This document shows, one piece after another, positions 3,745 to 48,116 of a stretch of DNA of 64,000 bases (the first letter of the stretch is position 1; each line of letters starts with the position of its first letter). The stretch is taken from the NCBI GenBank assembly GCA_026770705.1, contig JANJGN010000052.1, positions 1,860,001 to 1,924,000 on the forward strand, read 5' to 3'. This stretch comes from Isurus oxyrinchus (taxonomy: Eukaryota). Position numbers and translations under genes: made by a program. The notes beneath the pieces were generated by a model. The model saw only the letters and a program-made list of their open reading frames with translations. It did not search any database and was not told the origin of the DNA.

Positions 3745-3784
3745 ATGATCGGGAAATCTTACTTCTTCCTGTCACTTTTCCAAG
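3745..3784 (+). CDS. Signal-peptide exon, copy 2 (MIGKSYFFLSLFQ, phase 1)
   Basis: Acceptor at 3702, ATG at 3745, donor GTAAT at 3785. 40 coding nt, as in copy 1. Confidence 0.8.
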
Positions 3785-15533: not shown

Positions 15534-17468
15534 GTAAGTGCTGTGTTATAATTACTCAACAATTCACATTCAACACTCAATGGGAATTAACACAAACTGT
15601 GACGTTTACATATTAACACAAAACACAGTTTATTATAACACACTGTCTGATTCTCAATAACCTGGTGATAGCTTCCAGTTCAGTCCTAAAGCAATGTCTA
15701 ATACTCACTTTAATATCAATGATTAAATGTGTTGACTGTGTCTATCAATGTTATCAGTTTATCCACTCCCATCAATCTCTCAAATCCTGTCTTGAAGTCT
15801 GACATATCGACAGAAGAAAGATTTACATTTCTACAGCGCCTTTCACCACCCTAGACTTCCCACCCTAAACCTCTCCCTCTCCCTCTTCCTCTCCCTCTCT
15901 CTCTCTCTCTCTCTGTCTCTTTCTCTCTGTCTCTCCATAACACCGACCTCTTCTGGTCAGCTGTCGCTAATATCTACACGTGTCTGGGTGACATACTTTG
16001 TTTTATGACGCTCCTGTGTAGCACCTTGAGGTGATTTGTCATGTTAAAGTTGTTGTGAAAATATAAGTTGTTGCCCTTTGACTCTCGACCCCAGATCGAG
16101 TCTTATTTTTGAGGGAATGTACAACCTCCTTAGATTTCTGACCAAAATGTCATTTGATTATTTTTATTGAGCGAATGCCAAGCCCCGATACCGAGCGAGA
16201 GCCTCCTCATTTGCCGAGTTTAGGGTGATGAGTCAGCCCCTTAGTCCGTAGAGGGGATTCTCCTCGGTAATGTACAGCCTTGTTTGTGTCTCTCCACAAG
16301 CGCATGAGGGGTTTGTACAGAGGCTGCAGCGCTGGAGGGGGTCTGCACAGGGGTCCTGGCCTGTCCTGAGCCGGTTTTAGCAAGGACCACTCTGGCCTTG
16401 GCAGCTGAAAGCCAGCCATTGGACAGACAGGGCCTGTCACAAGGAGCCTGTTAGTCACTCCCCCCCGTGTCTCCTGTGCTCGGATCCAGACCATGTTGGC
16501 TGGTGGATCTGGCTCAGGAAGGGTCCTCCCCATGGGACCCCCAGATGGAAAGTGGGTCGAGCGGGTCAGTCACTTGCATGTTTATTCTGCAGCTTTAATA
16601 TTTTAAGATGGTAAGAATGTAGGAACATAAGAAATAGGGACAGGAGCAGGCCATTCAGCCCCTCCAGCCTGCTCTCGCTGATCTGGTTGTGGCCTTAACT
16701 CCATTTTCCTGCCTGTCCCCCAAACCCTTGACTCTCTTGTCGATCAAAAACCTGCCTCACTCAGCCTTGAGTCTATTCAATGGCCCAGCCTCCACTGCTC
16801 TCTGGGGAAGAGAATTCCACAGGCTAGCGCCCCTCTGAGAGAGGAAATTCCTCCTCATCTCAGTCTTAAATGGGAGAGCCCTCATTCTGAAACTGTGCTC
16901 CCTGGTTCTAGATTCCCCCACGAGGGGGAAACATCCTCCCAGCATCCACCCTGTCAAGCCCCCTCGGAATCGGATATGTTTCAATAAGGTCACCCCTCAT
17001 TCTTCTAAACTCCAATGGATACAGGCCCAACCTGCTCAACATTTCCTCACAGGACAAACCCTTTAATCCCAGGAATCAGCCCAGTGAAGCTTCTCTGAAC
17101 TGCCTGTACACAATGATCCTGTTACAATCTCACTAACGCCCTGTGCAGCTGTTGCAAGACTTCCCTCCTTTTATACTCCATCCCTTTGCAATAAAGGCCA
17201 ACATTCCACTTGCCTTCCTCATTCCGTGGTGTTCCTGAATGCTGACTTTCTGTGATTCATGTACAAGGACACCCAGATCCCTCTGTACTGCATTCTGCAG
17301 CCTGTCTCCATTTAAATAATATCCTGTTTTTCTATTCTTCCTGCCAAAATAATTTGTTGCCATTCTCCTCAGTATTGACCATCCCCCCAATTCAGCCTCA
17401 TCTGTAAATTTTGAGTCTAGTGGATCCACAAACCATCCAGAGATAAATATTGAGATTTCTCTCCCCAG

Positions 17469-17837
17469 TTGGACTGTCACAAGAGTGGAAAGGTGACACT
17501 CCACGAGAGGTGACAGCTCAGGAAGGTTCGTGTGTACAGATTCCATGTCATTACAGTTATCCATCGTGTCTGGAAAACCAACCGCGAGGTGGACTCTGGT
17601 TTAATAATGAGAAACAGATTCCCTGGGCTCCCATTGCCTTTCACTCCAAGGATCACAGTCACGAGTTACCACGGTTCCGCCATCGGACCCGGCTGTCTGG
17701 AGACCTGAAAGATGGCGACTGTTCCCTGATTATAAACAACATCAGACGGGAAGATGCAGGACCTTATTTTTTCAGAATAGAATTTGACAATGGTCCGAGC
17801 CATAACTATTACCCTGTAACCCAGCTTCACGTTTCTG
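17469..17837 (+). CDS. Siglec-like V-set exon V3 (protein identical to V2)
   Basis: 369 nt, open, canonical splice sites. Confidence 0.88.
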
Positions 17838-19774
17838 GTAAGTGCTGTGTTATAATTACTCAACAATTCACATTCAACACTCAATGGGAATTAACACAAA
17901 CTGTGACGTTTACATATTAACACAAAACACAGTTTATTATAACACACTGTCTGATTCTCAATAACCTGGTGATAGCTTCCAGTTCAGTCCTAAAGCAATG
18001 TCTAATACTCACTTTAATATCAATGATTAAATGTGTTGACTGTGTCTATCAATGTTATCAGTTTATCCACTCCCATCAATCTCTCAAATCCTGTCTTGAA
18101 GTCTGTCATATCGACAGAAGAAAGATTTACATTTCTACAGCGCCTTTCACCACCCTAGACTTCCCACCCTAAACCTCTCCCTCTCCCTCTTCCTCTCCCT
18201 CTCTCTCTCTCTCTCTCTGTCTCTTTCTCTCTGTCTCTCCATAACACCGACCTCTTCTGGCCAGCTGTCGCTAATATCTCCACATGTGTCTGGGTGACAT
18301 ACTTTGTTTTATGACGCTCCTGTGTAGCACCTTGAGGTGATTTGTCATGTTAAAGTTGTTGTGAAAATATAAGTTGTTGCCCTTTGACTCTCGACCCCAG
18401 ATCGAGTCTTATTTTTGAGGGAATGTACAACCTCCTTAGATTTCTGACCAAAATGTCATTTGATTATTTTTATTGAGCGAATGCCAAGCCCCGATACCGA
18501 GCGAGAGCCTCCTCATTTGCCGAGTTTAGGGTGATGAGTCAGCACCTTAGTCTGTAGAGGGGATTCTCCTCGGTAATGAGCAGCCTTGTTTGTGTCTCTC
18601 CACAAGCGCATGAGGGGTTTGTACAGAGGCTGCAGCGCTGGAGGGGGTCTGCACAGGGGTCCTGGCCTGTCCTGAGCCGGTTTTAGCAAGGACAACTCTG
18701 GCCTTGGCAGCTGAAAGCCAGCCATTGGACAGACGGGGCCTGTCACAAGGAGCCTGTTAGTCACTCCCCACCGTGTCTCCTGTGCACGGATCCAGACCAT
18801 GTTGGCTGGTGGATCTGGCTCAGGAAGGGTCCTCCCCATGGGACCCCCAGATGGAAGGTGGGTCGAGCGGGTCATTCACTTGCATGTTTATTCTGCTGCT
18901 TTAATATTTTAAGAAGGTAAGAATGTAGGAACATAAGAAATAGGGACAGGAGCAGGCCATTCGGCCCCTCCAGCCTGCTCTCACTGATCTGGTTGTGGCC
19001 TTAACTCCATTTTCCTGCCTGTCCCCCAAACCCTTGACTCTCTTGTCGATCAAAAACCTGCCTCACTCAGCCTTGAGTCTATTCAATGGCCCAGCCTCCA
19101 CTGCTCTCTGGGGAAGAGAATTCCACAGGCTAGCGCCCCTCTGAGAGAGGAAATTCCTCCTCATCTCAGTCTTAAATGGGGGAGCCCTCATTCCGAAACT
19201 GTGCTCCCTGGTTCTAGATTCCCCCACGAGGGGGAAACATCCTCCCAGCATCCACCCTGTCAAGCCCCCTCGGAATCGGATATGTTTCAATAAGGTCACC
19301 CCTCATTCTTCTAAACTCCAATGGATACAGGCCCAACCTGCTCAACATTTCCTCACAGGACAAACCCTTTAATCCCAGGAATCAGCCCAGTGAAGCTTCT
19401 CTGAACTGCCTGTACACAATGATCCTGTTACAATCTCACTAACGCCCTGTGTAGCTGTTGCAAGACTTCCCTCCTTTTATACTCCATCCCTTTGCAATAA
19501 AGGCCAACATTCCACTTGCCTTCCTCATTCCGTGTTGTTCCTGAATGCTGACTTTCTGTGATTCATGTACCAGGACACCCAGATCCCTCTGTACTGCATA
19601 CTGCAGCCTGTCACCATTTAAATTATATCCTGTTTTTCTATTCTTCCTGACAATATAATTTATTGCCATTCTCCTCAGTATTGACCATCCCCCCAATTCA
19701 GCCTCATCTGTAAATATCGGGTTCAGTGGATCCACAAACCATTCAGAGTTAAATATTGAGATTTCTCTCCCCAG

Positions 19775-20140
19775 CTGAACCCTCACAAGAGTGGAAAGGT
19801 GACACTCCACGAGAGGTGACAGTGCAGGAAGGTTCCTGTGTACAGATTCCATGTCATTATAGTTATCCATCATGTCTGGAAAACCAACCGCGACGTGGAG
19901 TCTGGCTTAATAATGAGGAATGGAGAACATCGTCTATAGCCTTTCACTCCAAGGATCACAGTCACGAGTTACCACGGTTCCACCATCGGACCCGGCTGTC
20001 TGGAGACCTGAAAGATGGCGACTGTTCCCTGATTATAAACAACATCACATGGGAAGATGCAGGACCTTATTTTTTCAGAATAGAATTTGACAATGGTCCG
20101 AGCCATAACTATTACCCTGTAACCCAGGTTCACGTTTCTG
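19775..20140 (+). CDS. Siglec-like V-set exon V4 (type B loop NNEEWRTSS; Arg present)
   Basis: 366 nt, open, canonical splice sites. Confidence 0.88.
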
Positions 20141-22073
20141 GTAAGTGCTGTGTTATAATTACTCAACAATTCACATTCAACACTCAATGGGAATTAACAC
20201 AAACTGTGACGTTTACATATTAACACAAAACACAGTTTATTATAACACACTGTCTGATTCTCAATAACCTGGTGATAGCTTCCAGTTCAGTCCTAAAGCA
20301 ATGTCTAATACTCACTTTAATATCAATGATTAAATGTGTTGACTGTGTCTATCAATGTTATCAGTTTATCCACTCCCATCAATCTCTCAAATCCTGTCTT
20401 GAAGTCTGACATATCGACAGAAGAAAGATTTACATTTCTACAGCGCCTTTCACCACCCTAGACTTCCCACCCTAAACCTCTCCCTCTCCCTCTTCCTCTC
20501 CCTCTCTCTCTCTCTCTCTGTCTCTTTCTCTCTGTCTCTCCATAACACCGACCTCTTCTGGTCAGCTGTCGCTAATATCTACACGTGTCTGGGTGACATA
20601 CTTTGTTTTATGACGCTCCTGTGTAGCACCTTGAGGTGATTTGTCATATTAAAGTTGTTGTGAAAATATAAGTTGTTGCCCTTTGACTCTCGACCCCAGA
20701 TCGAGTCTTATTTTTGAGGGAATGTACAACCTCCTTAGATTTCTGACCAAAATGTCATTTGATTATTTTTATTGAGCGAATGCCAAGCCCCGATACCGAG
20801 CGAGAGCCTCCTCATTTGCCGAGTTTAGGGTGATGAGTCAGCACCTTAGTCTGTAGAGGGGATTCTCCTCGGTAATGAGCAGCCTTGTTTGTGTCTCTCC
20901 ACAAGCGCATGAGGGGTTTGTACAGAGGCTGCAGCGCTGGAGGGGGTCTGCACAGGGGTCCTGGCCTGTCCTGAGCCGGTTTTAGCAAGGACAACTCTGG
21001 CCTTGGCAGCTGAAAGCCAGCCATTGGACAGACGGGGCCTGTCACAAGGAGCCTGTTAGTCACTCCCCCCCGTGTCTCCTGTGCTCGGATCCAGACCATG
21101 TTGGCTGGTGGATCTGGCTCAGGAAGGGTCCTCCCCATGGGACCCCCAGATGGAAGGTGGGTCGAGCGGGTCAGTCACTTGCATGTTTTTTCTGCAGCTT
21201 TAATATTTTAAGAAGGTAAGAATGTAGGAACATAAGAAATAGGGACAGGAGCAGGCCATTCGGCCCCTCCAGCCTGCTCTCACTGATCTGGTTGTGGCCT
21301 TAACTCCATTTTCCTGCCTGTCCCCCAAACCCTTGACTCTCTTGTCGATCAAAAACCTGCCTCACTCAGCCTTGAGTCTATTCAATGGCCCAGCCTCCAC
21401 TGCTCTCTGGGGAAGAGAATTCCACAGGCTAGCGCCCCTCTGAGAGGGGAAATTCCTCCTCATCTCAGTCTTAAATGGGAGAGCCCTCATTCCGAAACTG
21501 TGCTCCCTGGTTCTAGATTCCCCCACGAGGGGGAAACATCCTCCCAGCATCCACCCTGTCAAGCCCCCTCGGAATCGGATATGTTTCAATAAGGTCACCC
21601 CTCATTCTTCTAAACTCCAATGGATACAGGCCCAACCTGCTCAACATTTCCTCACAGGACAAACCCTTTAATCCCAGGAATCAGCCCAGTGAAGCTTCTC
21701 TGAACTGCCTGTACACAATGATCCTGTTACAATCTCACTAACGCCCTGTGCAGCTGTTGCAAGACTTCCCTCCTTTTATACTCCATCCCTTTGCAATAAA
21801 GGCCAACATTCCACTTGCCTTCCTCATTCCGTGTTGTTCCTGAATGCTGACTTTCTGTGATTCATGTACCAGGACACCCAGATCCCTCTGTACTGCATAC
21901 TGCAGCCTGTCACCATTTAAATTATATCCTGTTTTTCTATTCTTCCTGACAATATAATTTATTGCCATTCTCCTCAGTATTGACCATCCCCCCAATTCAG
22001 CCTCATCTGTAAATATCGGGTTCAGTGGATCCACAAACCATTCAGAGTTAAATATTGAGATTTCTCTCCCCAG

Positions 22074-22439
22074 CTGAACCCTCACAAGAGTGGAAAGGTG
22101 ACACTCCACGAGAGGTGACAGTGCAGGAAGGTTCCTGTGTACAGATTCCATGTCATTATAGTTATCCATCATGTCTGGAAAACCAACCGCGACGTGGAGT
22201 CTGGCTTAATAATGAGGAATGGAGAACATCGTCTATAGCCTTTCACTCCAAGGATCACAGTCACGAGTTACCACGGTTCCACCATCGGACCCGGCTGTCT
22301 GGAGACCTGAAAGATGGCGACTGTTCCCTGATTATAAACAACATCACATGGGAAGATGCAGGACCTTATTTTTTCAGAATAGAATTTGACAATGGTCCGA
22401 GCCATAACTATTACCCTGTAACCCAGGTTCACGTTTCTG
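22074..22439 (+). CDS. Siglec-like V-set exon V5 (protein identical to V4)
   Basis: 366 nt, open, canonical splice sites. Confidence 0.88.
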
Positions 22440-24373
22440 GTAAGTGCTGTGTTATAATTACTCAACAATTCACATTCAACACTCAATGGGAATTAACACA
22501 AACTGTGACGTTTACATATTAACACAAAACACAGTTTATTATAACACACTGTCTGATTCTCAATAACCTGGTGATAGCTTCCAGTTCAGTCCTAAAGCAA
22601 TGTCTAATACTCACTTTAATATCAATGATTAAATGTGTTGACTGTGTCTATCAATGTTATCAGTTTATCCACTCCCATCAATCTCTCAAATCCTGTCTTG
22701 AAGTCTGACATATCGACAGAAGAAAGATTTACATTTCTACAGCGCCTTTCACCACCCTAGACTTCCCACCCTAAACCTCTCCCTCTCCCTCTTCCTCTCC
22801 CTCTCTCTCTCTCTCTCTGTCTCTTTCTCTCTGTCTCTCCATAACACCGACCTCTTCTGGTCAGCTGTCGCTAATATCTACACGTGTCTGGGTGACATAC
22901 TTTGTTTTATGACGCTCCTGTGTAGCACCTTGAGGTGATTTGTCATATTAAAGTTGTTGTGAAAATATAAGTTGTTGCCCTTTGACTCTCGACCCCAGAT
23001 CGAGTCTTATTTTTGAGGGAATGTACAACCTCCTTAGATTTCTGACCAAAATGTCATTTGATTATTTTTATTGAGCGAATGCCAAGCCCCGATACCGAGC
23101 GAGAGCCTCCTCATTTGCCGAGTTTAGGGTGATGAGTCAGCACCTTAGTCTGTAGAGGGGATTCTCCTCGGTAATGAGCAGCCTTGTTTGTGTCTCTCCA
23201 CAAGCGCATGAGGGGTTTGTACAGAGGCTGCAGCGCTGGAGGGGGTCTGCACAGGGGTCCTGGCCTGTCCTGAGCCGGTTTTAGCAAGGACAACTCTGGC
23301 CTTGGCAGCTGAAAGCCAGCCATTGGACAGACGGGGCCTGTCACAAGGAGCCTGTTAGTCACTCCCCCCCCGTGTCTCCTGTGCTCGGATCCAGACCATG
23401 TTGGCTGGTGGATCTGGCTCAGGAAGGGTCCTCCCCATGGGACCCCCAGATGGAAGGTGGGTCGAGCGGGTCAGTCACTTGCATGTTTTTTCTGCAGCTT
23501 TAATATTTTAAGAAGGTAAGAATGTAGGAACATAAGAAATAGGGACAGGAGCAGGCCATTCGGCCCCTCCAGCCTGCTCTCACTGATCTGGTTGTGGCCT
23601 TAACTCCATTTTCCTGCCTGTCCCCCAAACCCTTGACTCTCTTGTCGATCAAAAACCTGCCTCACTCAGCCTTGAGTCTATTCAATGGCCCAGCCTCCAC
23701 TGCTCTCTGGGGAAGAGAATTCCACAGGCTAGCGCCCCTCTGAGAGGGGAAATTCCTCCTCATCTCAGTCTTAAATGGGAGAGCCCTCATTCCGAAACTG
23801 TGCTCCCTGGTTCTAGATTCCCCCACGAGGGGGAAACATCCTCCCAGCATCCACCCTGTCAAGCCCCCTCGGAATCGGATATGTTTCAATAAGGTCACCC
23901 CTCATTCTTCTAAACTCCAATGGATACAGGCCCAACCTGCTCAACATTTCCTCACAGGACAAACCCTTTAATCCCAGGAATCAGCCCAGTGAAGCTTCTC
24001 TGAACTGCCTGTACACAATGATCCTGTTACAATCTCACTAACGCCCTGTGCAGCTGTTGCAAGACTTCCCTCCTTTTATACTCCATCCCTTTGCAATAAA
24101 GGCCAACATTCCACTTGCCTTCCTCATTCCGTGTTGTTCCTGAATGCTGACTTTCTGTGATTCATGTACCAGGACACCCAGATCCCTCTGTACTGCATAC
24201 TGCAGCCTGTCACCATTTAAATTATATCCTGTTTTTCTATTCTTCCTGACAATATAATTTATTGCCATTCTCCTCAGTATTGACCATCCCCCCAATTCAG
24301 CCTCATCTGTAAATATCGGGTTCAGTGGATCCACAAACCATTCAGAGTTAAATATTGAGATTTCTCTCCCCAG

Positions 24374-24739
24374 CTGAACCCTCACAAGAGTGGAAAGGTG
24401 ACACTCCACGAGAGGTGACAGTGCAGGAAGGTTCCTGTGTACAGATTCCATGTCATTATAGTTATCCATCATGTCTGGAAAACCAACCGCGACGTGGAGT
24501 CTGGCTTAATAATGAGGAATGGAGAACATCGTCTATAGCCTTTCACTCCAAGGATCACAGTCACGAGTTACCACGGTTCCACCATCGGACCCGGCTGTCT
24601 GGAGACCTGAAAGATGGCGACTGTTCCCTGATTATAAACAACATCACATGGGAAGATGCAGGACCTTATTTTTTCAGAATAGAATTTGACAATGGTCCGA
24701 GCCATAACTATTACCCTGTAACCCAGGTTCACGTTTCTG
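24374..24739 (+). CDS. Siglec-like V-set exon V6 (protein identical to V4)
   Basis: 366 nt, open, canonical splice sites. Confidence 0.88.
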
Positions 24740-26673
24740 GTAAGTGCTGTGTTATAATTACTCAACAATTCACATTCAACACTCAATGGGAATTAACACA
24801 AACTGTGACGTTTACATATTAACACAAAACACAGTTTATTATAACACACTGTCTGATTCTCAATAACCTGGTGATAGCTTCCAGTTCAGTCCTAAAGCAA
24901 TGTCTAATACTCACTTTAATATCAATGATTAAATGTGTTGACTGTGTCTATCAATGTTATCAGTTTATCCACTCCCATCAATCTCTCAAATCCTGTCTTG
25001 AAGTCTGACATATCGACAGAAGAAAGATTTACATTTCTACAGCGCCTTTCACCACCCTAGACTTCCCACCCTAAACCTCTCCCTCTCCCTCTTCCTCTCC
25101 CTCTCTCTCTCTCTCTCTGTCTCTTTCTCTCTGTCTCTCCATAACACCGACCTCTTCTGGTCAGCTGTCGCTAATATCTACACGTGTCTGGGTGACATAC
25201 TTTGTTTTATGACGCTCCTGTGTAGCACCTTGAGGTGATTTGTCATATTAAAGTTGTTGTGAAAATATAAGTTGTTGCCCTTTGACTCTCGACCCCAGAT
25301 CGAGTCTTATTTTTGAGGGAATGTACAACCTCCTTAGATTTCTGACCAAAATGTCATTTGATTATTTTTATTGAGCGAATGCCAAGCCCCGATACCGAGC
25401 GAGAGCCTCCTCATTTGCCGAGTTTAGGGTGATGAGTCAGCACCTTAGTCTGTAGAGGGGATTCTCCTCGGTAATGTGCAGCCTTGTTTGTGTCTCTCCA
25501 CAAGCGCATGAGGGGTTTGTACAGAGGCTGCAGCGCTGGAGGGGGTCTGCACAGGGGTCCTGGCCTGTCCTGAGCCGGTTTTAGCAAGGACCACTCTGGC
25601 CTTGGCAGCTGAAAGCCAGCCATTGGACAGACGGGGCCTGTCACAAGGAGCCTGTTAGTCACTCCCCCCCCGTGTCTCCTGTGCTCGGATCCAGACCATG
25701 TTGGCTGGTGGATCTGGCTCAGGAAGGGTCCTCCCCATGGGACCCCCAGATGGAAGGTGGGTCGAGCGGGTCAGTCACTTGCATGTTTATTCTGCAGCTT
25801 TAATATTTTAAGAAGGTAAGAATGTAGGAACATAAGAAATAGGGACAGGAGCAGGCCATTCAGCCCCTCGAGCCTGCTCTTGCTGATCTGGTTGTGGCCT
25901 TAACTCCATTTTCCTGCCTGTCCCCCAAACCCTTGACCCCCTTGTCGATCAAAAACCTGCCTCACTCAGCCTTGAGTCTATTCAATGGCCCAGCCTCCAC
26001 TGCTCTCTGGGGAAGAGAATTCCACAGGCTAGCGCCCCTCTGAGAGAGGAAATTCCTCCTCATCTCAGTCTTAAATGGGGGAGCCCTCATTCCGAAACTG
26101 TGCTCCCTGGTTCTAGATTCCCCCACGACGGGGAAACATCCTCCCAGCATCCACCCTGTCAAGCCCCCTCGGAATCGGATATGTTTCAATAAGGTCACCC
26201 CTCATTCTTCTAAACTCCAATGGATACAGGCCCAACCTGCTCAACATTTCCTCACAGGACAAACCCTTTAATCCCAGGAATCAGCCCAGTGAAGCTTCTC
26301 TGAACTGCCTGTACACAATGATCCTGTTACAATCTCACTAACACCCTGTGCAGCTGTTGCAAGACTTCCCTCCTTTTATACTCCATCCCTTTGCAAAAAA
26401 GGCCAACATTCCACTTGCCTTCCTCATTCCGTGGTGTTCCTGAATGCTGACTTTCTGTGATTCATGTACAAGGACACCCAGATCCCTCTGTACTGCATTC
26501 TGCAGCCTGTCTCCATTTAAATAATATTCTGTTTTTCTATTCTTCCTGCCAAAATAATTTGTTGCCATTCTCCTCAGTATTGACCATACCCCCAATTCAG
26601 CCTCATCTGTAAATTTTGAGTCTAGTGGATCCACAAACCATCCAGAGATAAATATTGAGATTTCTCTCCCCAG

Positions 26674-27042
26674 TTGGACAGTCACATGAGTGGAAAAGTG
26701 ACACTCCACGAGAGGTGACAGCGCAGGAAGGTTCGTGTGTACAGATTCCATGTCATTACAGTTATCCATCGTGTCTGGAAAACCAACCGCGAGGTGGAGT
26801 CTGGTTTAATGACGAGAAACAGATTCCCTGGGCTCCCATTGCCTTTCACTACAAGGATCACAGTCACGAGTTACCACAGTTCCACCATCGGACCCGGCTG
26901 TCTGGAGACCTGAAAGATGGCGACTGTTCCCTGATTATAAACAACATCAGACGGGAAGATGCAGGACCTTATTTTTTCAGGATAGAATTTGACAATGGTC
27001 CGAGCCATAACTATTACCCTGTAACCCAGCTTCACGTTTCTG
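26674..27042 (+). CDS. Siglec-like V-set exon V7 (type A variant; Arg present)
   Basis: 369 nt, open, canonical splice sites. Loop reads NDEKQIPWAP. Confidence 0.88.
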
Positions 27043-31863: not shown

Positions 31864-33528
31864 GTGAGTGTACACAGACTTTAAAATTTCTCTCATCTCC
31901 GAACACATATACTCAGATGCTCTCCCACGCACACACACACAAGCACTCACAAATGTACAGACCCAAAGTGCATGCACACACACAATCCCACACTCATGAG
32001 CACACAGAAAGACACACTCACACACAAACTCAGTACTGCACTGGAGAGTTCTCCTGGATTCTGGGATATGTGTTCCCATTCATATTTATCGAAGAATATC
32101 CAAATTACAAAGTGTATTCCAGAAACTCACATGCACAAAGATTCCAACTGATACTCCCCACCTCTCTGTGTATCTCTCTCTTCCTTTAAGAAGCTTCCTA
32201 ATCCGTAACTCTTGCCTGTCCTAACTCCTCCTTATAAGTCCCTGTGTCAAATTTTTTGTGTATCTGAGAGAAAGGGAGAGATAAGGAAGTTTAGGAAGGG
32301 ATTTCCTGTTAGTGAAGAGCTTACTTCTTTTTCTCACCTTTCCAGTGTTCAGTTTTGCCATCATGTCCAATGACCCTGTTTATAATGGGGGCATCCTATG
32401 TAAACGTCACACTGTCTTTACATCCTCCCATCAGTGGTGGCACTGTGGTGCTTAAGCTTGCACCTCCCAGCTTTTCAGCCAACTTCACTTCACAATTTGC
32501 TACATATGGTGTAAGTTCATCGAAATTAACATATATCAAATGGTAGATTTGATAATACAGTTTATTGAAAGGTTCATCCGCGCTCTGGGAAGGGTTTACA
32601 CTCTCCAGGAAGCAGGAATAGGCTGGATGTTGGGGAGTTCATCTTTTCCCAGAGAGTAGGGATCCTCGGGAATGTGCTGTCAGTGGGTGTGGTGGTTGCT
32701 GTCTCTCTGTCACCTTCAAGAGGGATCTGGAGTGGTTACTGACTGGGGGAGAGATCATGGAAGCGGAGAATGATACAGCACAGGAGGAGGCCATTCAGCC
32801 CATTGTGCCTGTGCCAGGTCTTTCAATGTTCTATCCAATCAGATCCACTAACCACCACTCCACTTTGCCCCCATCTTCTTCCTTCAAGTGTTTATCCAAT
32901 TTCCCATTTGAAAGTTCCTGTTGAATCTGCTTCCACTGCCCTTTCAGGCAGCACCTTCCAGATCACAACAACTCGCTCTGTCAAAACAAATTCTCCTCAT
33001 CTCCCCCTCCGGTTCATCAATCTGTGTCCCTCTGGTTACCGACCCTCCTGCCCCTTAAATACATCGATACTGTTCACCTCGACCACTCCCAGTGGGAGCG
33101 AGTTCCACATTCTCCCCTCTCTCTGGGTAAAGATTGGAACTGTTTATTAAGCGGGGGGTGTAAGTTCATGGGGGAGTCCATCTCGATCCTGCTTGATTTG
33201 CACACGCGTCCGAGATGGATTTCCACCCTGCACTAAACGTTTCCAGAATTTTCTACAGCACAATCCTGTACACAGCGATGGAGAGAAACATTGGACAGGG
33301 AGTCCAACAGCACAATGATCCATTCTCACCAATGTTCCACGCTAAGGGGAAAGTTCCGATTGTCCACTCTTAGAGTGTTTACAATGAAAACATTCATTCC
33401 ACATTGAATCCCAGTGGATGGGTCAATATTACAGCAAATGTTGCAGTGATATGAAGCTTGATTGTTCAGCCAGAGTGAGAGATTGAAAGCGGAGAGTCAG
33501 TGATGATTTCTTTCTGTGTGTTCTCTAG

Positions 33529-33668
33529 ACAGTGGAGGAGAGATTCTGCACGTGATCCTGATCCTGGGAATACGAGCTGTGATATTCCTTGTGGCTGTGG
33601 TTATCACTATCGCTGGAGTCTGTGTCTGGGAGAGACAAACAGTGAAAGGAAGTCGACAGACTGTTTGA
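33529..33668 (+). CDS. Gene A TM + short tail exon: (Y)SGGEILHVILILGIRAVIFLVAVVITIAGVCVWERQTVKGSRQTV*
   Basis: Acceptor ttctctag at 33528, phase 1 in frame with C2 exon 2. Hydrophobic stretch with CGA (Arg) at 33573-33575, stop TGA at 33666-33668. Confidence 0.85.
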
Positions 33669-33769
33669 AGCTTTGTACAGCAACAATCTGGTCAGTCAGT
33701 GCGGACAAATAACGTGTGATGTTGGGTTAAATTGTAAAGAAACTGGTCAGTGTCCTGGTTAGAATCACC

Positions 33770-34390: not shown

Positions 34391-34744
34391 CTTATTCTTT
34401 CCATCAGCACAAACAGCAATTTCCAAGCGGACTCCCATCAGCAGACAGAGTGCAATGAAACATCGGCATGCCTGCTTCTTAATGTACGGAGAGAAACCTG
34501 CAACGAGAGATTCTCCTTCTTCTCCTCAGCAAGCTGAAACTTTTCCTTATACCTGGTGCTCCCCAGTCCTGCTGTGTGGACACATCATAACCACGGCATT
34601 GTCTGGCTGTGTGCAGCCAACATGGTCGAATAGGAATGAACAGAAATGTGACATTGCTAAACTCTGTTCTCTGATTGGAATGTGCTTTCTGAATGCTGCA
34701 CCTTTTTCATGCTGCGATAGATTGTAAGAAGCATTTGGGTTATG

Positions 34745-34750
34745 AATAAA
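34745..34750 (+). terminator. Candidate poly(A) signal of gene A
   Basis: AATAAA ~1.1 kb after the stop, retained in the gene C duplicate (~47777). Confidence 0.35.
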
Positions 34751-35092
34751 ATTACATTGATTAACACAAGTGATTAAAATGCTCAGCCTGTTCTGTAGAT
34801 ACTTATGGATTAAAATTCTTATTTTGCTGCCAGATTCTTGGCTCAAAGACATTACTTCATGTTGTCACTTTTTCCAGTCAGATGAATTCCTGTGCCCATC
34901 TTTGTAATGGAAATTTTCAATGTAAACACGTCACATAGCAGCTGCACACAATTGCCAGTGGGTGGTGTGATATCAAAGCTGTCTTGCTGCTCAGAAAGAG
35001 AGAGAAATATTCCTGATAAATGCATGAACTTCATGTGTGCATCAGACACTGACATCAGATGCAATTTTGTGCAATTTATGCAATGTATTTTA

Positions 35093-36030: not shown

Positions 36031-36693
36031 TGCTTAGTATTTCTCCTCCAACAGCATTTTTAAATATAAACCCTCAGAGCCATGGTAGAAATTTGAAGTT
36101 AACAAACAGCAAACAGAAAGATCACAGAGTCATGATGAATTGCCAACAGTTTGATTCTGTTGTAACGCATTGTGAAATTACGCACTCATTCCTAATGCCT
36201 GTTTACTCACTCCTTTACTACTTCCTCATTTTGTCTCACAGAGACACATCAACCCTTTCTCATTAAATACACAGAGGGGGCAGCACAGGAAGAGGTCATT
36301 CAGCCCAAGCAGAGCGTGTGGGCAGTTCCTCCCCAGGCGAGCAGTCGGACAGGTCCTGGGTAAGTAACGGAACGATTGGAATTCACTTCCACGACCAACA
36401 CCGTCCTTTGTTGATGTTGTGACTTAATAAAGACAGATTCCAATGATTGATGCCTTTGAAAGATTTCTACTGATTATTGAGATCAGGGTGTGAGGCTCAA
36501 GTCTGTTGTACAGAAAATCTTTCTAGCTCAAGGGATGAGGGAAGTGCAGAGACATGAGCTTGGGGGCGTCCTGAGGTGGTGAAAGGTGCTATAGAAATGC
36601 AAGTCTTTCATTGTTTTTCTTTCTTAAAGCCTTGTAACTCTCTGCAGAGCAACTATCATCCCACAGAGAATCAAATTAGTCTGTGAAGACATT

Positions 36694-37330: not shown

Positions 37331-37719
37331 ATTGTCTAAAAGCAGTTCTGATCTCTGGAGAGCTGTCGGACAAGAGGTGAGGTCTCATTAACTCCTTTCT
37401 TTTTCACAGCTTGAGAGTGAGAAGCTGATGAAATATCTGCGAGTGGACAATGATCTTACTTCCTCCTGTCACTTCTCCAAGGTAATATCATCGTCAGCTC
37501 GGACAGATTTATGGTTAATAGTCTTTGTAAAAGATCATTCTTATTGAGCTGTGATTGGGAACCGATTCAGCAGTGAGCCAGTGTACAAACTCACACCAAG
37601 TCCCATTCACCCATCACCCCTGTGATCACTGATATACACTGACTCCCTGTCTGACAGCAACAGAAAATTAAAATCCAGGTCATCCTGTAGAAATCCCTCC
37701 AAAATTTTGCAACTCTCCC

Positions 37720-38125
37720 TATCCATGTTACCTCCTCCAGCCCATACCAACCTCCCTATCTCTGTAACATCTTCCAGCACATATATTACTCCCTACCTCT
37801 GTAACCTCGCCCTGCTCCTACAATCCTCCCTATCTCAGTAACCTCCTCCAGCCCCTACCACTCTCCCTAACTCTATAACCAACTCCAGCCCCTATATCCT
37901 TCGCTATCTCTGTTAATTTCTCCAGCCCCTACAAACCTCCCTTTCTCTGTAACCTCGTCCACCATTACAACCCTCCCTATTTCTGTAATCTCCTCCAGTA
38001 CCTACAACCCTCCGAGATCTCTGCACTCCTCCAATTCCAGCATCTTGACCATCCCCCGATTCCCAACATTCCATTATTGGCGGCCGTGCCTTCAGCTGCC
38101 TGGGCCCCGAGCTCTGGAATTCAAA
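37720..38125 (+). repeat. 37-bp L2-tail-derived minisatellite
   Basis: CCTACAACCCTCCCTATCTCTGTAACCTCCTCCAGCC repeats followed by L2 tail sequence. Confidence 0.8.
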
Positions 38126-39029
38126 ATCAAAATTCAGGGATGAATAAACTCCAATAGTCCATTCCCTGAGAGGCCATGATTACATCACAGCAGCATTCAG
38201 AATAGACAGAGGGTCCAGCCCTCACACTTCTTGCACAGTTTCACCATAATGAAATGAATTAACTGAAAGGTAAACCGTCAGTGTAGAGAGATGAGATATT
38301 TACACAGTTTCCCTGTGTATCTTGTAGACACTGTGTTGGGTGGAAGACTGGCTTCACTAAACAGGGTCCTGAGGACCATGAGCCAATGTAGAATGAAGTT
38401 GTCCACTCCTGTGTCCAGGATTCTCTTCCATCCATTGTGAAAACTTGGGGAGTTCCTTGTGTGTCCTGTAGATGGTCCACACTGCAGCCACTGTGCCCCA
38501 GTGATGGAAGGGGTGGATATCGAGTCTAGTGAAGCTACAAAACATCCAGAGTTAAATATTGATATTTCTCTCCCCAGTTGGACTGTCACAAGAGTGGAAA
38601 GGTGACACTCCACGAGAGGTGATAGCGCAGGAATATTCGTGTGTACAGATTCCATGTCATTACAGCTACCCATCGTGTCTGGAAAACCAACTGCAAATTG
38701 GAATCTGATTTAATGACAAAGTCTTGATAAGATTCTTTATAGCCTTTCACTCCAAGGATAATAATCGCGAGTTACCACTGTTCCAACATCGGACCCGGCT
38801 GTCTGGAGACCTGAAAGATGGTGACTGTTCCCTGATTATAAACAACATCAGACGGGAAGATGCAGGACCTCATTTTTTCAGCATAAAATTTGACAATGGT
38901 CCGAGCCATAACTATTACCCTGTAACCCAGCTTCACGTTTCTGGTAAGTGCTGTGTTATAATTACTCAACAATTCACATTCAACACTCAATGGGAATGAA
39001 CACAAACTCTGACGTTTACATAATAACAC

Positions 39030-39753
39030 TGTTATGACATGGCAGGTGATGTGTGCCAAGTGGAGAGAATCCACAAAGGGAACTTGGCCAAGCATAATTT
39101 CCAACTACACACCCCCTTGAAGGCAACAATCCCAATAAATCTTAAATGGAAATGGGAATCCGGCAAGGTTACTGCAGCACCCACTTGACAGTGTAATTCC
39201 AAAGTCTTTTAACACACCTTTAAGTACTGGAGCAGCAAAAGTGAACAGAAACGTTTTACCCAAGGCTGCTTCACCTACTGTACCTTTCAAGAAATTCATG
39301 TCCCCCTCCCACATAACATTCCATCCTTCTTTATGTTGGTTTCTCTCTCTCCAATGTATAAAATCCCATTGTTGCACCTTTCTTGGGAAATACACTTTTC
39401 CCAAAATATAAAAATCTTTCGTGTTGTCAATATGGCCCATTCCTTTTGGGAAGAATACACATAATAACCTTGCCCTGGTTATCTTGTTAATTATAAACAC
39501 CCAACTACCCTTTGACAATCAAACATTCTCTTTACTGATCTAAAATTTCATTTACAGCTTTTCTGTGGAACCCTCATCCTAGCTCGTCCATCCCCATTTC
39601 AGAAGTCTGCTTTGCACCAAACTCTATTGATAATTTTAACCTCATAGTTGATCTGACTCAAATTCAATTAAATCAGACCCACAGACGGAACCATCCACAT
39701 TCATTCCCATAAGCCGACAATATTATTCTGAAAAATATCATAGTTTCATCACA
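39030..39753. mobile_element. Solo LTR in the gene B V-C2 intron
   Basis: TGTTATGAC..TCATCACA termini with acac/acat flanks. Interrupts sequence that is contiguous downstream of the other V exons. Confidence 0.65.
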
Positions 39754-40504
39754 ACATAAAACACAGTTTAGTATAACGCAGAGTCTGATTCTCAATAACC
39801 TGGTGATAGCTTCCATTCAGTCCAAAAGCAACCTCTAATACTCACTTTAATATCAATGATTAAATGTATTGAATGTGTCCATCAATGTTATCAGGTCATC
39901 CACTCCCATCTATCTCTAATCTTAAGGCTGTGATTTCTATTTGAACTGATGCTTCACGTTATATTTCTCTAAAAGGATCCATTCTCTGTCTGTTAGATTT
40001 CACAGATAAACCCACGATATTCCCTGCTGAAATTATTGCAGGAAAGCGTGTGGATGTAAGCTGCACCTTCAACACAACGTGCAATGGAACAGCAGCACCT
40101 GTCTTAACCTGGGACACTCCCACTGACGTACCTGGATCAGTCTCAAACACTGTAACTCAGCATGATGTCACTCTGACCTATACTTCTGTTCTGACCCTGA
40201 TCCCATCACACAAACACCACGGACACACTCTCAGCTGCAGAGTGAGATATCCATCTGTTTCATCGGAGCGGACCCTCGTACTAACTGTGCAAGGTAAGAA
40301 CGGACACCCTTCATTATACATTCGCTGGAACAGTCTAGATGACGCACAGCCGGATCCCATAGAAAGGTATTCTGATGACAATCAGATAATCTGTTTTTTA
40401 AAGAAAATGGTGACCAGAATACAATTAATAACAGTTTCTGAACATTAACATAGGGGCTTTTATGTCCAGCCAAGGGGCTGATAGAGCAGAGCAGGAATCG
40501 CAAT

Positions 40505-41411: not shown

Positions 41412-44400
41412 AACTTCCTCATTTTGTCTCACAGAGACACATCAACCCTTTCTCATTAAATACACAGAGGGAGCAGCACAGGAAGAGGTCATTCAGCCCA
41501 AGCAGAGCGTGTGGGCAGTTCCTCCCCAGGTGAGCAGTCAGACAGGTCCTGGGTAAGTAACGGAACGATTGGAATTCACTTCCACGACCAACACCGTCCT
41601 TTGTTGATGTTGTGACTTTATAAAGACAGATTCCAATGATTGATGCCTTTGAAAGATTTCTATGATTATTGAGATCTGGGTGTGAGGCTCAAGTCTGTTG
41701 TACAGAAAATCTTTCTAGCTCAAGGGATGAGGGAACTGTAGATACTTTGGGATGCCCTGATGTGGTGAATGGTGCTATAGAAATGCAAGTCCTTTGTTGT
41801 TTTTCATTCTTAAAGCCTTGTAACTCTCTGCAGAACACCTATCATCCCACAGAGAATCAAATTATTCTGTGAAGACATTGTCTAAGAGCATTTCTGATCT
41901 CTCGAGAGCTGGTGGACAAGAGGTGAGGTCTCATTAACTCCTTTCCCTTTCAGAGTTTCAGAGTGAGAAGCTGATGAAATATCTGGGAGTGGATAATGAT
42001 TGGAAAATCTTACTTCCTCCTGTCACTTCTCCAAGGTAATATCATCGACAGCTCGGTCAGATTTATGGTTAATAGCCTTTGTAAAAGATCATTCTTATTG
42101 AACTGTGATTGGGAACCGATTCAGCAGTGAGCCAGTGTACAAACTCACACCAAGTCCCATTCACCTATCAACCCTAAACTATCTGACTCCTGGTCCTACA
42201 ACATCTCAAACTTAAAATTCACATCTCTTTGTTCAAATGCATCCATTGCCTCACACTGCCTCCTTATCTCTGTAACCTCCTGCAACTCTCCCAACCAACG
42301 TCCCAGATCTCTGTGTTACTCCAATTCCGGCCACTTGACAATCCCCCGATTCCCATCACTCCAATACTGGCGGCCGGGCCTTCAGCTGCCTGGGGCCTGA
42401 GCTCTGGAATTCACTCCCTAAAGCTCGGGATGTAGGAGATCAGAGGGTTTCATTTTACTGAAAATCACCACGACCACATCACAGCTGCAGTCAGAATAGA
42501 CAGAGAGTCCAGCCCTCGCACTTCCTGCACAGTTTCACCATAGCAACCACAATAAGGAAGTAAAATAACTGAAAGTTAAACCGAAGCTCAACCAGTCAGT
42601 GTAGAGAGATGAGATATTTACACAGTTTCCCTGTGTGTCTTGTAGACACTGTGTTGGGTGGAAGACTGGCTTCACTAAACAGGGTCCTGAGGACCATGAG
42701 CCAATGTAGAATGAACTTGTCCATTCCTGTGTCCAGGATTCTCTTCTATCCATTGTGAAACACTGGGGAGATCCCTGTGTGTCCTGTAGATGGTCCACAC
42801 TGCAGCCACTGTGCCCCAGTGATGGAGGGGGTGGATATCGAGTCTAGTGGATCTACAAACCATCCAGAGTTAAATATTGATACTTCTCTCCCCAGTTGGA
42901 CTGTCACAAGAGTGGAAAGGTGACAGTCCCCGAGAGGTGACAGCGCAGGAAGGTTCGTGTGTACAGATTCCATGTCATTACAGTTATCCAGCACATTTGG
43001 AAAATCAACCGCGAGGTGAAGTCTGGTTTAATAATGAGAATCAGATTCCCTGGGCTCCCATTGCCTTTCACTCCAAGGATCACAGTCACGAGTTACCATG
43101 GTTCCACCATCGGACCCGGCTGTCTGGAGACCTGAAAGATGGCGACTGTTCCCTGATTATAAACAACATCAGATGGGAAGATGCAGGACCTTATTTTTTC
43201 AGAATAAAATTTGACAATGGTCGAGCCATAACTATTACCCTGTAACCCAGCTTCATGTTTCTGGTAAGTGCTGTGTTATAATTACTCAACAATTCACATT
43301 CAACACTCAATGGGAAATAACACAAAGTGTGACGTTTACATATTAACACAAAACACAGCTTATTATAACACACTGTCTGATTCTCAATAACCTGGTGATA
43401 GCTTCCAGTTCAGTCCGAAAGCAACGTCTAATACTCACTTTAATATCAATGATGAAAAGCATTAACTGTATTATCAGGTTATCCACTCCCATCAATCTCT
43501 CCTGTCCTGTTTAAAAGTCTGACGTATCGATAAAAGAAAGATGTGCATTTCTGCAGCGCAATTTACCACCTCAGGAGGATCCAAATCCATTCACAGCCAA
43601 TGAAATTATTCCTGAATTGTAGTCACAGATGTTAAACACAGCAGGCAGTTTGTGCACAGCAAGATCCAACAAACCACAAGGTGATAAATCACCCAGATCA
43701 CTGAGGAAATTAGAAGCCAGTGAACTCAAACCTCTGGTCTGATGAAGAGTCATACGGACTCGAAACGTTAACCCTGTCTTCCTCTCCACTGATACTGTCA
43801 GACCTGCTGAGTCTTTCCAGCAATTTTTGTTTTTGTTTCAGATTTCCAGCATCCGCAGTATTCTGCTTTTAACTCCAATCTCTGGTCTGAGCCTCTTCTC
43901 TCATCCAGTGTTCTCAATTCACATGTCTCGGAGTGAACGTGTATTAAGCTGAGAGACAGAAACACTACTGCCAAAGAGCAAGAAAATCTTTCCTGATCAT
44001 TGTAACCTCTCAGTTCTGATATCATCCTTGTAAAAGTGCTTTCTCTTGTGGGACTGTGATATCTATTTGAACTGATGCTTCACGTTATATTTCTCTAAAA
44101 GGATCCATTCTCTGTCTGTTAGATTTCACAGATAAACCCACGATATTCCCTGCTGAAATTATTGCAGGAAAGCGTATGGATGTAAGCTGCACCTTCAACA
44201 CAACGTGCAATGGAACAGCAGCACCTGTCTTAACCTGGGACACTCCCACTGACGTACCTGGATCAGTCTCATACACTGTAACTCAGCATGGTGTCACTCT
44301 GACCTATACTTGTGTTCTGACCCTGATCCCATCACTCAAACACCACGGACACACTCTCAGCTGCAGAGTGAGATATCCATCTGTTTCATCGGAGCGGACC

Positions 44401-46701
44401 CTCGTACTAACTGTGCAAGGTAATTACATACACCTTTCATTCTACATCAGCACTCCCTCAGCGCTGACCCTCTGACAGTGCAGCCCGTTCTCAGTATCCA
44501 CATTCTAAGGCCTCTCTAAGTGCTTCAAAGTCGATAGAAGTTAATTGATCTTTATTTGATTATTGCTGAATGAAGAGACAAGCTGTCTAAACTTTACATC
44601 TCGCACACACCATTCTCCATGGCAACACCTCCACCTATCAGAGACCACTTGCCAACCAATCAGCACTCTCTTCCCATTAAGTATAAATTGTTGTTCATTT
44701 TCTGTTGGTAATCCTGTGAACGGGCTTCTTGATTCCTGCCCTGACATCTTAATGTCCCAATGAACAGAACAACTTCCAACAATGAGCTGTGGTTGGTGAT
44801 TCCTCACATTACATCCAGGGACACTGGAGACTATCAGTGTGTGGCAGAGAATGAACATGGAGCAGTGGAGGGATTCATAACCATCACTGTGGAACGTGAG
44901 TGTACACAGACTTCAACATCTCTCTCAGATTCGAACACGACACAAACAACCTCAAACATACACATCTAAGTAGACACATGCAGACACACATATATGAGCA
45001 CACAGAAAGACACACTCACACACAAACACACTAACACACACTCCCCTGTGGGCTACCTGACCTCCCTCAGTACTGCCCTGGAGAGTTGGCCTGAATTCTG
45101 GGATTTGTGTTCCCATTCATATTTATGCAAGAATATGGAAATTACAAAGTCTATTACAGACAGTCAGATGCATAGAGACACTCACAGATACTCTCTGCCT
45201 CTCCAACTCTCTCTCTCCCTTTAAGAAGCTTCCTGAAAGCTCACCCTTCGAACAATCACCGGTCCCAAATCCTCCTTATCTGATTTGTGTGATTTTCTTT
45301 GTGTATTTGAGAGTAAGAGAGGTGGAGAGGTTTAGGAGGAGAATTCCTGTTGGTGAAAAGCTTACATCATGTTCTCACCTTTCCAGTGCCCATATTTCAC
45401 ATGATGTCCAATGTCCTTGTTCATAATGGGAATTGCCTATGTAAACATCACGCTGTAGTTACAGTCTCCTACCAGTGGTGGCATTGTAGCACTTAATCCT
45501 TGTGTTTCCCAGCTTTTCAAGCAACTCCACTTCCCAGTTTGCTCCACAAGCTGTGAGTTCATTGGAATTCAATTATTTCTCAAACGGTAGATTTGATGTC
45601 ATTTTATTGAAATGCCTCCCTGAAGGGTTTACACTCTCTGGGAAGCAGGAATAGGCTGGATGTTGGGGAGTTCATCTTTTCCCAGAGAGCAGTGATCCTC
45701 GGGAATGTGCTGTCAGTGGGTGTGGTGGTTCCTGTTTCTCTGTCGCCTTCAAGAGGGATCTGGAGTCGTTACTGACTGGGGGAGAGATCATGGAAACGGA
45801 GAATGATACAGCACAGGAGGAGGCCATTCAGTCCATTGTGCCTGTGCCAGGTCTTTCAATGTTCTATCCAATCAGATCCACTAACCACAATTCCAATTTG
45901 TCGCCATCTTCCTCCTTTAAGTATTTATCCAATTTCCCTTTTGAAAGTTCCTATTGAATCTGCTTCCACCGCCCTTTCAGGCAGCACCTTCCAGATCACA
46001 ACAACTCGCTCTGTCAAAACAAATTCTCCTCATCTCCCCCTCCGGTTCGTCAATCTGTGTCCCTCTGGTTACCGAGCCTCCTGCCCCTTAAGTACATTGA
46101 TACTGTTCACCTCAACCACTCCCTGTGGGAGCGAGTTCCACATTCTCCCCTCTCTCTGGGTAAAGATTGGAACTGTTTATTAAGCGGGGGGTGTAAGTCC
46201 TTGGGGGAGTCCATCTCGATCCTGCCCGATTCGCACACGCGTCCGAGATGGATTTCCACCCTGCACAAAACGTTTCCAGAATTTTCTACAGCACAATCCT
46301 GTACACAGCGATTGGGAGAAACATTGGACAGGGAGTCCAACAGCACAATGATCCATTCTCACCAATGTTCCACGCTAAGGGGAAAGTTCCGATTGTCCAC
46401 TCTTAGAGTGTTTACAATGAAAACATTCATTCCACATTGAATCCCAGTGGATGGGTCAATATTACAGCAAATGTTGCAGTGATATGAAGCTTGATTGTTC
46501 AGCCAGAGTAAGAGATTGAAAGCGGAGAGTCAGTGATGATTTCTTTCTGTGTGTTCTCTAGACAGTGGAGGAGAGATTCTGCACGTGATCCTGATCCTGG
46601 GAATACGAGCTGTGATATTCCTTGTGGCTGTGGTTATCACTATCGCTGGAGTCTGTGTCTGGGAGAGACAAACAGTGAAAGGAAGTCGACAGACTGTTTG
46701 A
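41412..46701 (+). pseudogene. Siglec-like gene C (probable pseudogene): exon 0 ends 41552, leader 41996-42035, V 42896-43263, C2-1 44123-44419, C2-2 remnant 44743-44895, TM 46562-46701
   Basis: V exon is 368 nt (1-nt deletion, aatggtCgag vs aatggtCCgag, near 43222). The 5' half and acceptor of C2-2 are replaced by foreign sequence. Leader, C2-1 and TM exons are intact. Confidence 0.8.
43736..43773 (+). ncRNA. Minimal type-I hammerhead ribozyme motif within a Penelope-like fragment
   Basis: GGT-CTGATGA-A-GAGTC(ATACG)GACTC-GAAAC-GTTA-ACC: canonical core boxes, 5-bp stem II, short stem I. Confidence 0.6.
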
Positions 46702-48116
46702 AGCTTTGTACAGCAACATGCTGGTCAGTCAGTGCGGACAAATAACGTGTGATGTTGGGTTAAGTTGTAATGAAACTGGTCAGTGTCCTGGTTAGAATCA
46801 CCTTCGTATCAGAGAGGCATTCCAGCACAGTGGGAGCCCATTCAGCCCATTGAGTCCATGCTGTCTCTCTGTAGAGCAATACAGTCAGTCCCATTTCCCC
46901 CGCTCTATCCCCGTATCCCTGCAAGTTTATTTCCCCTCAAGTGTCCAACCAATTTCCTTTTGAAATCGTTCGTCTCCGCTTCCACCATCCTCGTAGGCAG
47001 CGAGTTCCAGCTCATTACCAATCGCTGTGTAAAAAAGTTCCTCCTCACATCCCCCCTCTGCCCAAAACCTTCAATCTGTGTCCCCCAGTCCTTGTCCCAT
47101 CAGCTAATGGCAACAGCTTCTCTTTGTCTGCCTTATCTAAACCCATCATCATCTTGTACACCTCGATCAGATCCCCCCTCAATCTCCTTTGCTCCAAGGA
47201 GAACAACACCAGCTTCTCCAACCCAACCTTGTAGCTAAAATCCCTCATCCCTGGACCCATTCTGCTCAATCTCCTCCCCACCCTCTCAAGGACCCTCACT
47301 TCCTTCCCAAAGTGAGGAGACCAGAACTGGACACAATACTCTAGTTTTGACCTAACCAGAGCTTTATAAATGTTCAGCATAACCTCCCTGTGTTTATTCT
47401 CAATCCCTCGATTTATGAAAAGCTTATTCTTTCCATCAGCACAAACAGCAATTTCCAAGCGGACTCCCATCAGCAGACAGAGTGCAATGAAACATCGGCA
47501 TGCCTGCTTCTTAATGTACGGAGAGAAACCTGCAACGAGAGATTCTCCTTCTTCTCCTCAGCAAGCTGAAACTTTTCCTTATACCTGGTGCTCCCAAGTC
47601 CTGCTGTGTGGACACATCATAACCACGGCATTGTCTGGCTGTGTGCAGCCAACATGGTCGAATAGGAATGAACAGAAATGTGACGTTGCTAAACTCTGTT
47701 CTCTGATTGGAATGTGCTTTCTGAATGCTGCACCTTTTTCATGCTGCAATAGATTGTAAGAAGCATTTGGGTTATGAATAAAATTACATTGATTAACACA
47801 AGTGATTAAAATGCTCAGCCTGTTCTGTAGATATTTAAAGATTAAAATTCTTGTTTTGCTGCAAAATACTTGGCTCAAAGACATTAGTTCATATTGTCAT
47901 GTTTTTCAATCAGATGAATTCCTCTGTCCATCTTTATAATAGAAATTTCCAATGTAAACATGTCACATTGTAGCTGCACACACTTGCCAGTGGCTGGTGT
48001 GATATCAAAGCTGTCTTGCTGTCGAGAAACAGCGAGAAATATTCCTGTTGTGTGCATGAACTTCATGTTAGCATGAGACACAGGCATCAGATACAATTTT
48101 GTGCAATTTGTTCTTT

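Follow-up and report, generated by a model that had tools for sequence, protein, structure and literature searches.

A putative activating receptor gene in a large, paired Siglec-type family of the shark Isurus oxyrinchus

Organization and splicing of the gene

The window analysed here is a stretch of 64,000 nucleotides (positions 1,860,001-1,924,000) of the 4.17-Mb contig JANJGN010000052.1 of Isurus oxyrinchus, abbreviated as C52. Positions refer to the window unless C52 is named. An intact Siglec-type gene of 1112 amino acids is situated on the plus strand, and its last coding exon spans 33529-33668. Leader, seven V exons, two C exons and the transmembrane (TM) exon, 11 exons in all, join into one open frame with 0 internal stops and AG/GT at every boundary; the joined frame is reduced to 1018 residues when the last Ig exon is omitted.

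The leader (signal peptide) exon is present on the plus strand in an upstream copy (1984-2023) and a proximal copy (3745-3784). Further along the same strand lie V1 (11385-11759), a Siglec-type V-set exon, and V2-V7 (15165-27042), which are arranged in 2.3-kb tandem units: V2 at 15165-15533, V3 at 17469-17837, V4 at 19775-20140, V5 at 22074-22439, V6 at 24374-24739 and V7 at 26674-27042. The C2-set domain C1 (28354-28650, plus) has the second Cys of Siglec domain 2. The Ig domain C2 (31582-31863, plus) is intact here; a joint from C2 to the TM exon is absent among the RNA joints listed, and the exon may be skipped in transcripts. The gene ends with a 3′ UTR exon (34408-34797, plus, 3′ end approximate) containing AATAAA at 34745-34750. 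A protocadherin-like set of variable exons, each V exon having its own leader, was considered and discarded: only two leaders precede the V array, and at 24373 an RNA contig carries a loose end with the sequence of a V exon's 3′ terminus, which indicates V-to-V splicing.

Two defective units follow on the plus strand. The first (37442-40293) comprises a leader in which a small deletion follows the ATG, a V exon with a stop (38578-38943) and a C1 exon (~39997-40293), and is devoid of its own TM exon. The second (41996-46723) is a broken gene of the same type with a leader, a frameshifted V exon (42896-43263), C1, a C2 remnant and a TM exon (46562-46723), the coding part of which (46562-46701) encodes a protein sequence identical to that of 33529-33668.

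The TM and tail exon of the intact gene (33529-33690, plus) starts behind the acceptor AG at 33527-33528 (TAG). It reads, in frame 2 of the window, SGGE-ILHVILILGI-R-AVIFLVAVVITIAGVCVW-ERQTVKGSRQTV-stop, with the stop codon ending at 33668 and the donor at 33691. The hydrophobic stretch (33543-33629) comprises 29 residues with the Arg, codon CGA at 33573-33575, inside it. The tail of 12 residues contains neither ITIM nor ITSM and zero Tyr after the helix, and the RNA joints listed add no further coding exon. The initial annotation of an Arg within a TM helix followed by a short, Tyr-free tail, the signature of an activating receptor, is thus borne out. It had also suggested, as a weak possibility, a class I PDZ ligand at the C-terminus, which was abandoned because position -2 is Gln instead of Ser/Thr; the C-termini of relatives vary as well. 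Since the frame is open over multiple exons, RNA joints are present and the exon occurs in 13 annotated shark proteins, 33529-33668 is no chance ORF. Comparison of the TM exon with solved structures gave zero matches, and with the protein atlas leads under 0.9 only.

Splicing was followed in contigs of 7 public runs (of 24 listed) aligned to the window; these represent the gene family as a whole and are not assignable to the 33529 locus. The joints are of the GT..AG type and the contigs therefore reflect processed RNA. The joint 28650>33529, which connects C1 directly with the TM exon, is present in 6 of the 7 distinct runs, which come from 3 studies and cover 2 organisms (4/4 in one set, 3/4 in another). 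It is accounted for by the second C exon, of which just a remnant is left in 16 of 18 genes of this type. One contig of 850 nt covers C1, the TM exon and the 3′ UTR exon at 34408, and another of 972 nt covers V, C1 and the TM exon. The joint 33690>34408 (GT..AG) is observed in 2/4 runs, and the 3′ UTR exon is the only downstream exon among the joints listed. The list covers the stronger joints and leaves 88 and 123 weaker rows outside. The donor in use, 33691, lies 22 nt past the stop and opens a 3′ UTR intron, so that zero cytoplasmic exons are added; at this distance (usual 50-nt rule) the message would escape nonsense-mediated decay. Two splicing variants had been named in advance as evidence against an activating receptor, and the RNA joints listed contain neither. 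The CAG acceptor at 33530-33532, 4 nt downstream of the acceptor in use, is out of frame and would therefore yield a soluble form instead of another TM segment, and cytoplasmic exons joined to the TM exon are absent. Splicing into a cytoplasmic-type exon at ~36280 was likewise rejected, as neither an in-frame donor nor a joint leading to it was seen and the donor used lies after the stop.

The Siglec-type ectodomain

V-set and Ig_CD22 Pfam matches above cut-off, together with the leader and the TM segment, give the protein the domain layout of a type I Siglec. The best solved matches of the V exons are Siglec-5, -7, -8, CD33 and MAG. V2-V7 all possess an F-strand Arg that aligns with the Arg of Siglec-5/7/8, and in the outermost V1 this sialic-acid-binding Arg is replaced by Ser. 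We infer that the V domains with the F-strand Arg would bind sialylated glycans. Several two-V paralogues, with all classes described below represented, likewise have no sialic-acid-binding Arg in their first V exon.

Siglecs are characterized by a Cys pattern of intra-sheet and V-to-C2 disulfides. V Cys 22, 27 and 85 and C1 Cys 23, 29 and 81 align with the cysteines of MAG, the bonds being assigned from the alignment only. The V exon alone is slightly closer to Siglec-5/7/8/CD33, and V plus C1 is closer to MAG (contigs unplaced). The whole ectodomain matches MAG best (E 2e-43), followed by CD33 (E 4e-25), and MAG is the best match of a full inhibitory paralogue. With MAG ahead of CD33, orthology to the CD33-related Siglecs is not established. 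MAG (Siglec-4) is a single conserved neural gene. Among solved structures it matches V plus C1 best, and the same holds for the membrane-proximal domain in some inhibitory paralogues; the shark family, in contrast, is multicopy and variable and has three kinds of tail. Among white-shark and basking-shark proteins, the best matches share 96-100% identity with the C1 exon.

V2-V7, but not V1, possess an additional Cys at residue 34, seven positions past the B-strand Cys. In the annotated part of C52 defined below it occurs in 32/32 non-first and 2/28 first V exons, counts that leave out 14 V exons off the pattern, and in public shark proteins in 23/27 non-first and 0/67 first V domains. In Siglecs a Cys of the C1 domain bonds to the preceding V. 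The extra V Cys sits about where C1 has this V-bonding Cys, which argues for a V-to-V disulfide. Such an inter-domain bond, putatively between Cys22 and Cys34, would stiffen the tandem into a multivalent rod and suggests a way in which lectin domains can stack in series.

Interleaved activating-type and inhibitory-type copies

The TM exon with Arg is one of many in the assembly. A 29-nt pattern in which the Arg codon was left free gave 217 exact matches (control 0), with CGA in 212 of them, and one acceptor pattern is common to 210 copies. The inhibitory type, in which the TM exon is uncharged and belongs to ITIM-bearing relatives, gave 211 matches and is located on at least 11 contigs; both totals could be inflated by allele copies left uncollapsed on other contigs. 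On C52, 66 Arg-TM and 65 inhibitory TM exons are interleaved on both strands.

Genes were annotated over 1.264 Mb of C52 (1,260,001-2,524,000) and were scored by script as intact when leader, V and C1 are open. The inhibitory type accounts for 21 genes: 13 intact, 3 intact with a V skipped and 5 broken or incomplete. Their tails have a distal Tyr motif in 21/21 cases and in addition an ITIM in 13/21. Among 18 Arg-type genes, 3 are intact, 1 is intact with a V skipped and 14 are broken or incomplete, one of which has an undetected leader as its sole defect. Broken genes are thus more frequent in the Arg type (14/18 vs 5/21; Fisher p 0.008 strict, 0.001 lenient), where the test takes related copies as independent and assembly indels may add to the broken count. 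Activating members of paired families are expected to be broken more often, and the gene ending at 33529-33668 is one of the few intact ones.

Domain number is highly variable among the inhibitory paralogues of C52, some of which have ten tandem V or eleven tandem C2 exons (C52:2,275,531-2,301,058, minus; 1,699,923-1,719,532, plus). A third class has an uncharged TM segment and, in its tail, Tyr-x-Asn motifs in place of ITIMs (for example C52:1,613,896, 1,969,103 and 2,220,407, all minus); it is represented by 7 genes in the annotated part, 4 intact, 1 intact with a V skipped and 2 broken or incomplete. Most leaders are preceded, at a distance of ~440 bp, by a duplicate of this class's first cytoplasmic exon. 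In the window it lies at ~1467-1547, 3220-3300, 36282-36359 and 41472-41552, and its role is probably that of a 5′ untranslated exon.

The nearest intact inhibitory gene lies at C52:1,935,043 (minus), 11 kb beyond the right end of the window. Identity between the V exons of the window and their closest inhibitory counterpart is 94.3-98.6%, with V2/V3 reaching 98.6%, and C1 identity is 97.5% between the classes and 97.5% within the Arg class. A linked inhibitory paralogue with a near-identical ectodomain, as expected of an activating paired receptor, is therefore present, and the search for ITIM-bearing paralogues with near-identical V exons on the flanking scaffold, proposed in the initial annotation, found them with their C exons alike. 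The annotation's supposition of a counterpart to an inhibitory paralogue outside the window holds as far as pairing is concerned; the gene does not have one partner but belongs to a mixed cluster as one of ~200. A tree of 75 V exons rejects a single clade of the 28 Arg-type ones (AU p 9e-79). By class, the V exons nevertheless group more tightly than under label shuffling (14 changes vs 22.6), and exchange between the classes is therefore partial. Ectodomain exons may have been exchanged by duplication, shuffling or gene conversion.

The frequency of broken neighbours of the same class, 14 of 18, also raises the prospect that this particular copy is functionless or mis-assembled, having arisen in a recent wave of segmental duplication within a family that still has functional members. 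V2 and V3 are identical, as are V4, V5 and V6, within repeats that are 97-98% identical. A 57-kb block of C52 (~1,386,000-1,444,000 vs 2,423,000-2,480,000) is duplicated at 99.96%, reflecting either segmental duplication in the very recent past or an artefact of assembly. Against this, all 11 of 11 exons are open with canonical sites and the stop lies close enough to the junction for the message to persist. Moreover, nearest copies otherwise differ by 0.3-6% over ~3 kb in a TM-anchored comparison, by which most copies are distinct; 59 of 67 rows are below 99.8% and 8 are at least 99.8% identical. We regard a dead or artefactual copy as very improbable.

The transmembrane arginine and its candidate adaptor

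The TM exon occurs in 9 of the 120 C1 relatives listed (166 found), namely P0004, P0009, P0018, P0027, P0032, P0036, P0043, P0081 and P0102, which are NCBI-annotated shark Siglec-12/13/14-like, CD33-like and MAG-like models with automatic names. A search with the TM exon added 4 models of Chiloscyllium punctatum (bamboo shark), P0121-P0124. These have CD22-like ectodomains, unrelated to the C exons of the window's Siglec-type family. The Arg is kept in 13/13 shark proteins with the exon, in three orders, and 12 of the 13 end in a short tail, the exception being P0081, apparently a fused model. The ray model P0104 has an Arg at a similar place. Its distribution suggests that the Arg-TM exon may act as a portable activating cassette; near the CD22-like gene of contig C2274, none was found in bases 1-50000 of 78680. 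Across 12 aligned TM-exon sequences 21 of 45 columns are invariant, and the Arg is not singled out. In 18 genomic copies the exon varies like its upstream intron (0.0125 vs 0.011), with a within-genome pN/pS of 1.3 from few changes. The 212/217 figure therefore reflects mostly recent amplification and is no evidence of selection; CpG-decay and pN/pS tests on the Arg carry little signal because the copies are too young.

Alternatively, the receptor might not signal at all and serve as a decoy or in adhesion or uptake, with the Arg merely anchoring the helix at the outer membrane face and the long V rod competing with inhibitory paralogues for ligand. Together with Trp, the 18 residues that follow the Arg could span the bilayer nearly on their own, purifying selection on the exon is not visible within the genome, and the seven-V rod resembles sialoadhesin, which is without a signalling domain in the excerpts of PMC13358205. 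However, a helix-embedded Arg with a short tail has been kept in three shark orders and reused on the CD22-like ectodomains of bamboo shark, and the near 1:1 ratio to inhibitory genes fits a signalling pair. A non-signalling role thus appears quite improbable. The receptor probably signals through some ITAM adaptor.

LILRA, GPVI and OSCAR are Arg-TM receptors coupled to FcR-gamma, for which an Asn-x-x-Arg motif is typical. According to excerpts of PMC1440944, FcR-gamma is the assembly partner of type I receptors whose TM Arg lies in the N-terminal segment, and DAP12 prefers a central Lys; the client Arg of FcR-gamma is at helix position 3 and the client Lys of DAP12 at position 9, with a strong side-chain preference. 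On a crude scale, the shark Arg falls at helix position 2-11. For a white-shark paralogue with Gln upstream, the helix windows listed put it at 2-8. Relatives have the polar substitutions Gln, Asp and Asn upstream of the Arg, which suggests that the core helix may begin near the Arg. Fc-alpha-RI (PMC1440944, excerpts) is similar in its type I helix with the Arg towards the outer side and its short tail. The shark gene differs from these FcR-gamma-coupled receptors in its Siglec-type rather than LRC-type ectodomain, the absence of Asn-x-x-Arg, a second hydrophobic run before the Arg and a candidate FcR-gamma partner with two ITAMs.

A search of the genome for the zeta/gamma family retrieved a CD247-like TM exon with Asp on contig C18 and a second gene of the family on C1723 (88553-90529) and C1648 (L044/L045). 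The TM exon of the latter matches FceRI-gamma best (E 2e-10), along with the annotated FcR-gamma of seven sharks (P0125-P0131). The exons in the assembly contain the TM Cys and Asp and one ITAM split across the two following exons; the leader and the last exons were not found in the assembly. The excerpts of PMC4016189 and PMC5742104 state that the FcR-gamma chain is absent from cartilaginous fish. To judge from these exons, a shark FcR-gamma gene is present, contrary to that statement, and the gene described here is a candidate client for it. Owing to an extra exon, annotated shark FcR-gamma has two ITAMs, vs one in the bird and teleost rows, and one catshark isoform skips this exon. CD3-zeta has three ITAMs.

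The basic residue of Siglec-14 is Arg. Excerpts of PMC4042635 and PMC13358205 indicate that Siglec-14 and -16 use DAP12, as do the activating Siglecs named in excerpts of PMC13233462, so that coupling to DAP12, or to DAP10 or CD3-zeta, instead of FcR-gamma has to be weighed. Some helix registers place the Arg at 8-11, near the centre, and the CD247-like exon offers an Asp. On the other hand, a Lys-to-Arg change reduces KIR-DAP12 assembly to 15% (PMC1440944, excerpts), and an exon-by-exon search of the genome, a weak test, gave zero credible DAP10 genes. A family search for ITAM, also a weak test, gave zero credible matches. A predicted complex between the TM exon and an FcR-gamma dimer, computed without alignments, scored 0.10 and weighs neither for nor against the pairing. 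We consider DAP12 and its alternatives unlikely, and FcR-gamma the more probable adaptor.

Taken as a whole, we favour, with modest confidence, an activating member of a paired Siglec-type system coupled to FcR-gamma. An activating Siglec-like receptor paired with inhibitory ones, as initially annotated, is supported at the level of sequence by ITIM/ITSM paralogues with near-identical V and C exons. The V rod would bind sialylated glycans, and within the bilayer the TM Arg would pair with the Asp residues of an FcR-gamma dimer. Clustering would then lead to ITAM phosphorylation and recruitment of a Syk-family kinase, ligand binding thereby switching the leukocyte on. Microbes displaying sialic acid could exploit the inhibitory paralogues, to which such a receptor may provide an activating counterweight.

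The primate Siglec-5/14 and Siglec-11/16 pairs (PMC4042635 and PMC13358205, excerpts; see also PMC5701461) are alike in the V-set F-strand Arg and the Siglec cysteines, in a short-tailed, basic-TM member beside ITIM/ITSM members, in near-identical ligand-binding exons across classes and in the frequent loss of activating members. In contrast to two pairs, the shark has ~200 + 200 TM exons, up to 7-10 tandem V and a third class with other Tyr motifs, and its adaptor is more likely FcR-gamma than DAP12. The combination of a TM Arg and a short tail is a textbook signature, and the exon alone is ordinary; its setting matters. What sets this family apart is its size, together with the likely adaptor and the V-V cysteine. 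If correct, this would extend paired activating and inhibitory Siglec-type receptors to cartilaginous fish on a very large scale. The fuller picture, possible though held with less than even confidence, would be a lamniform paired Siglec repertoire of >400 gene copies built from shuffled exons, an order of magnitude above the 15 human Siglecs. It would have V rods disulfide-linked by a dedicated Cys, three signalling ends, and a portable Arg-TM exon, also on CD22-like receptors, that works with a two-ITAM FcR-gamma. It would represent an independent, MAG-related origin of paired receptors for sialic acid and a use of FcR-gamma in a lineage without classical Fc receptors. In the literature on Siglecs of sharks, cartilaginous fish and teleosts covered here (excerpts of PMC8455134 included, subscription journals mostly outside and supplements excluded), the family is undescribed.

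We also note divergent Siglec-like V exons of another type near the end of C52 (~4,132,900 and ~4,159,400); the public model P0006 starts with a similar sequence.
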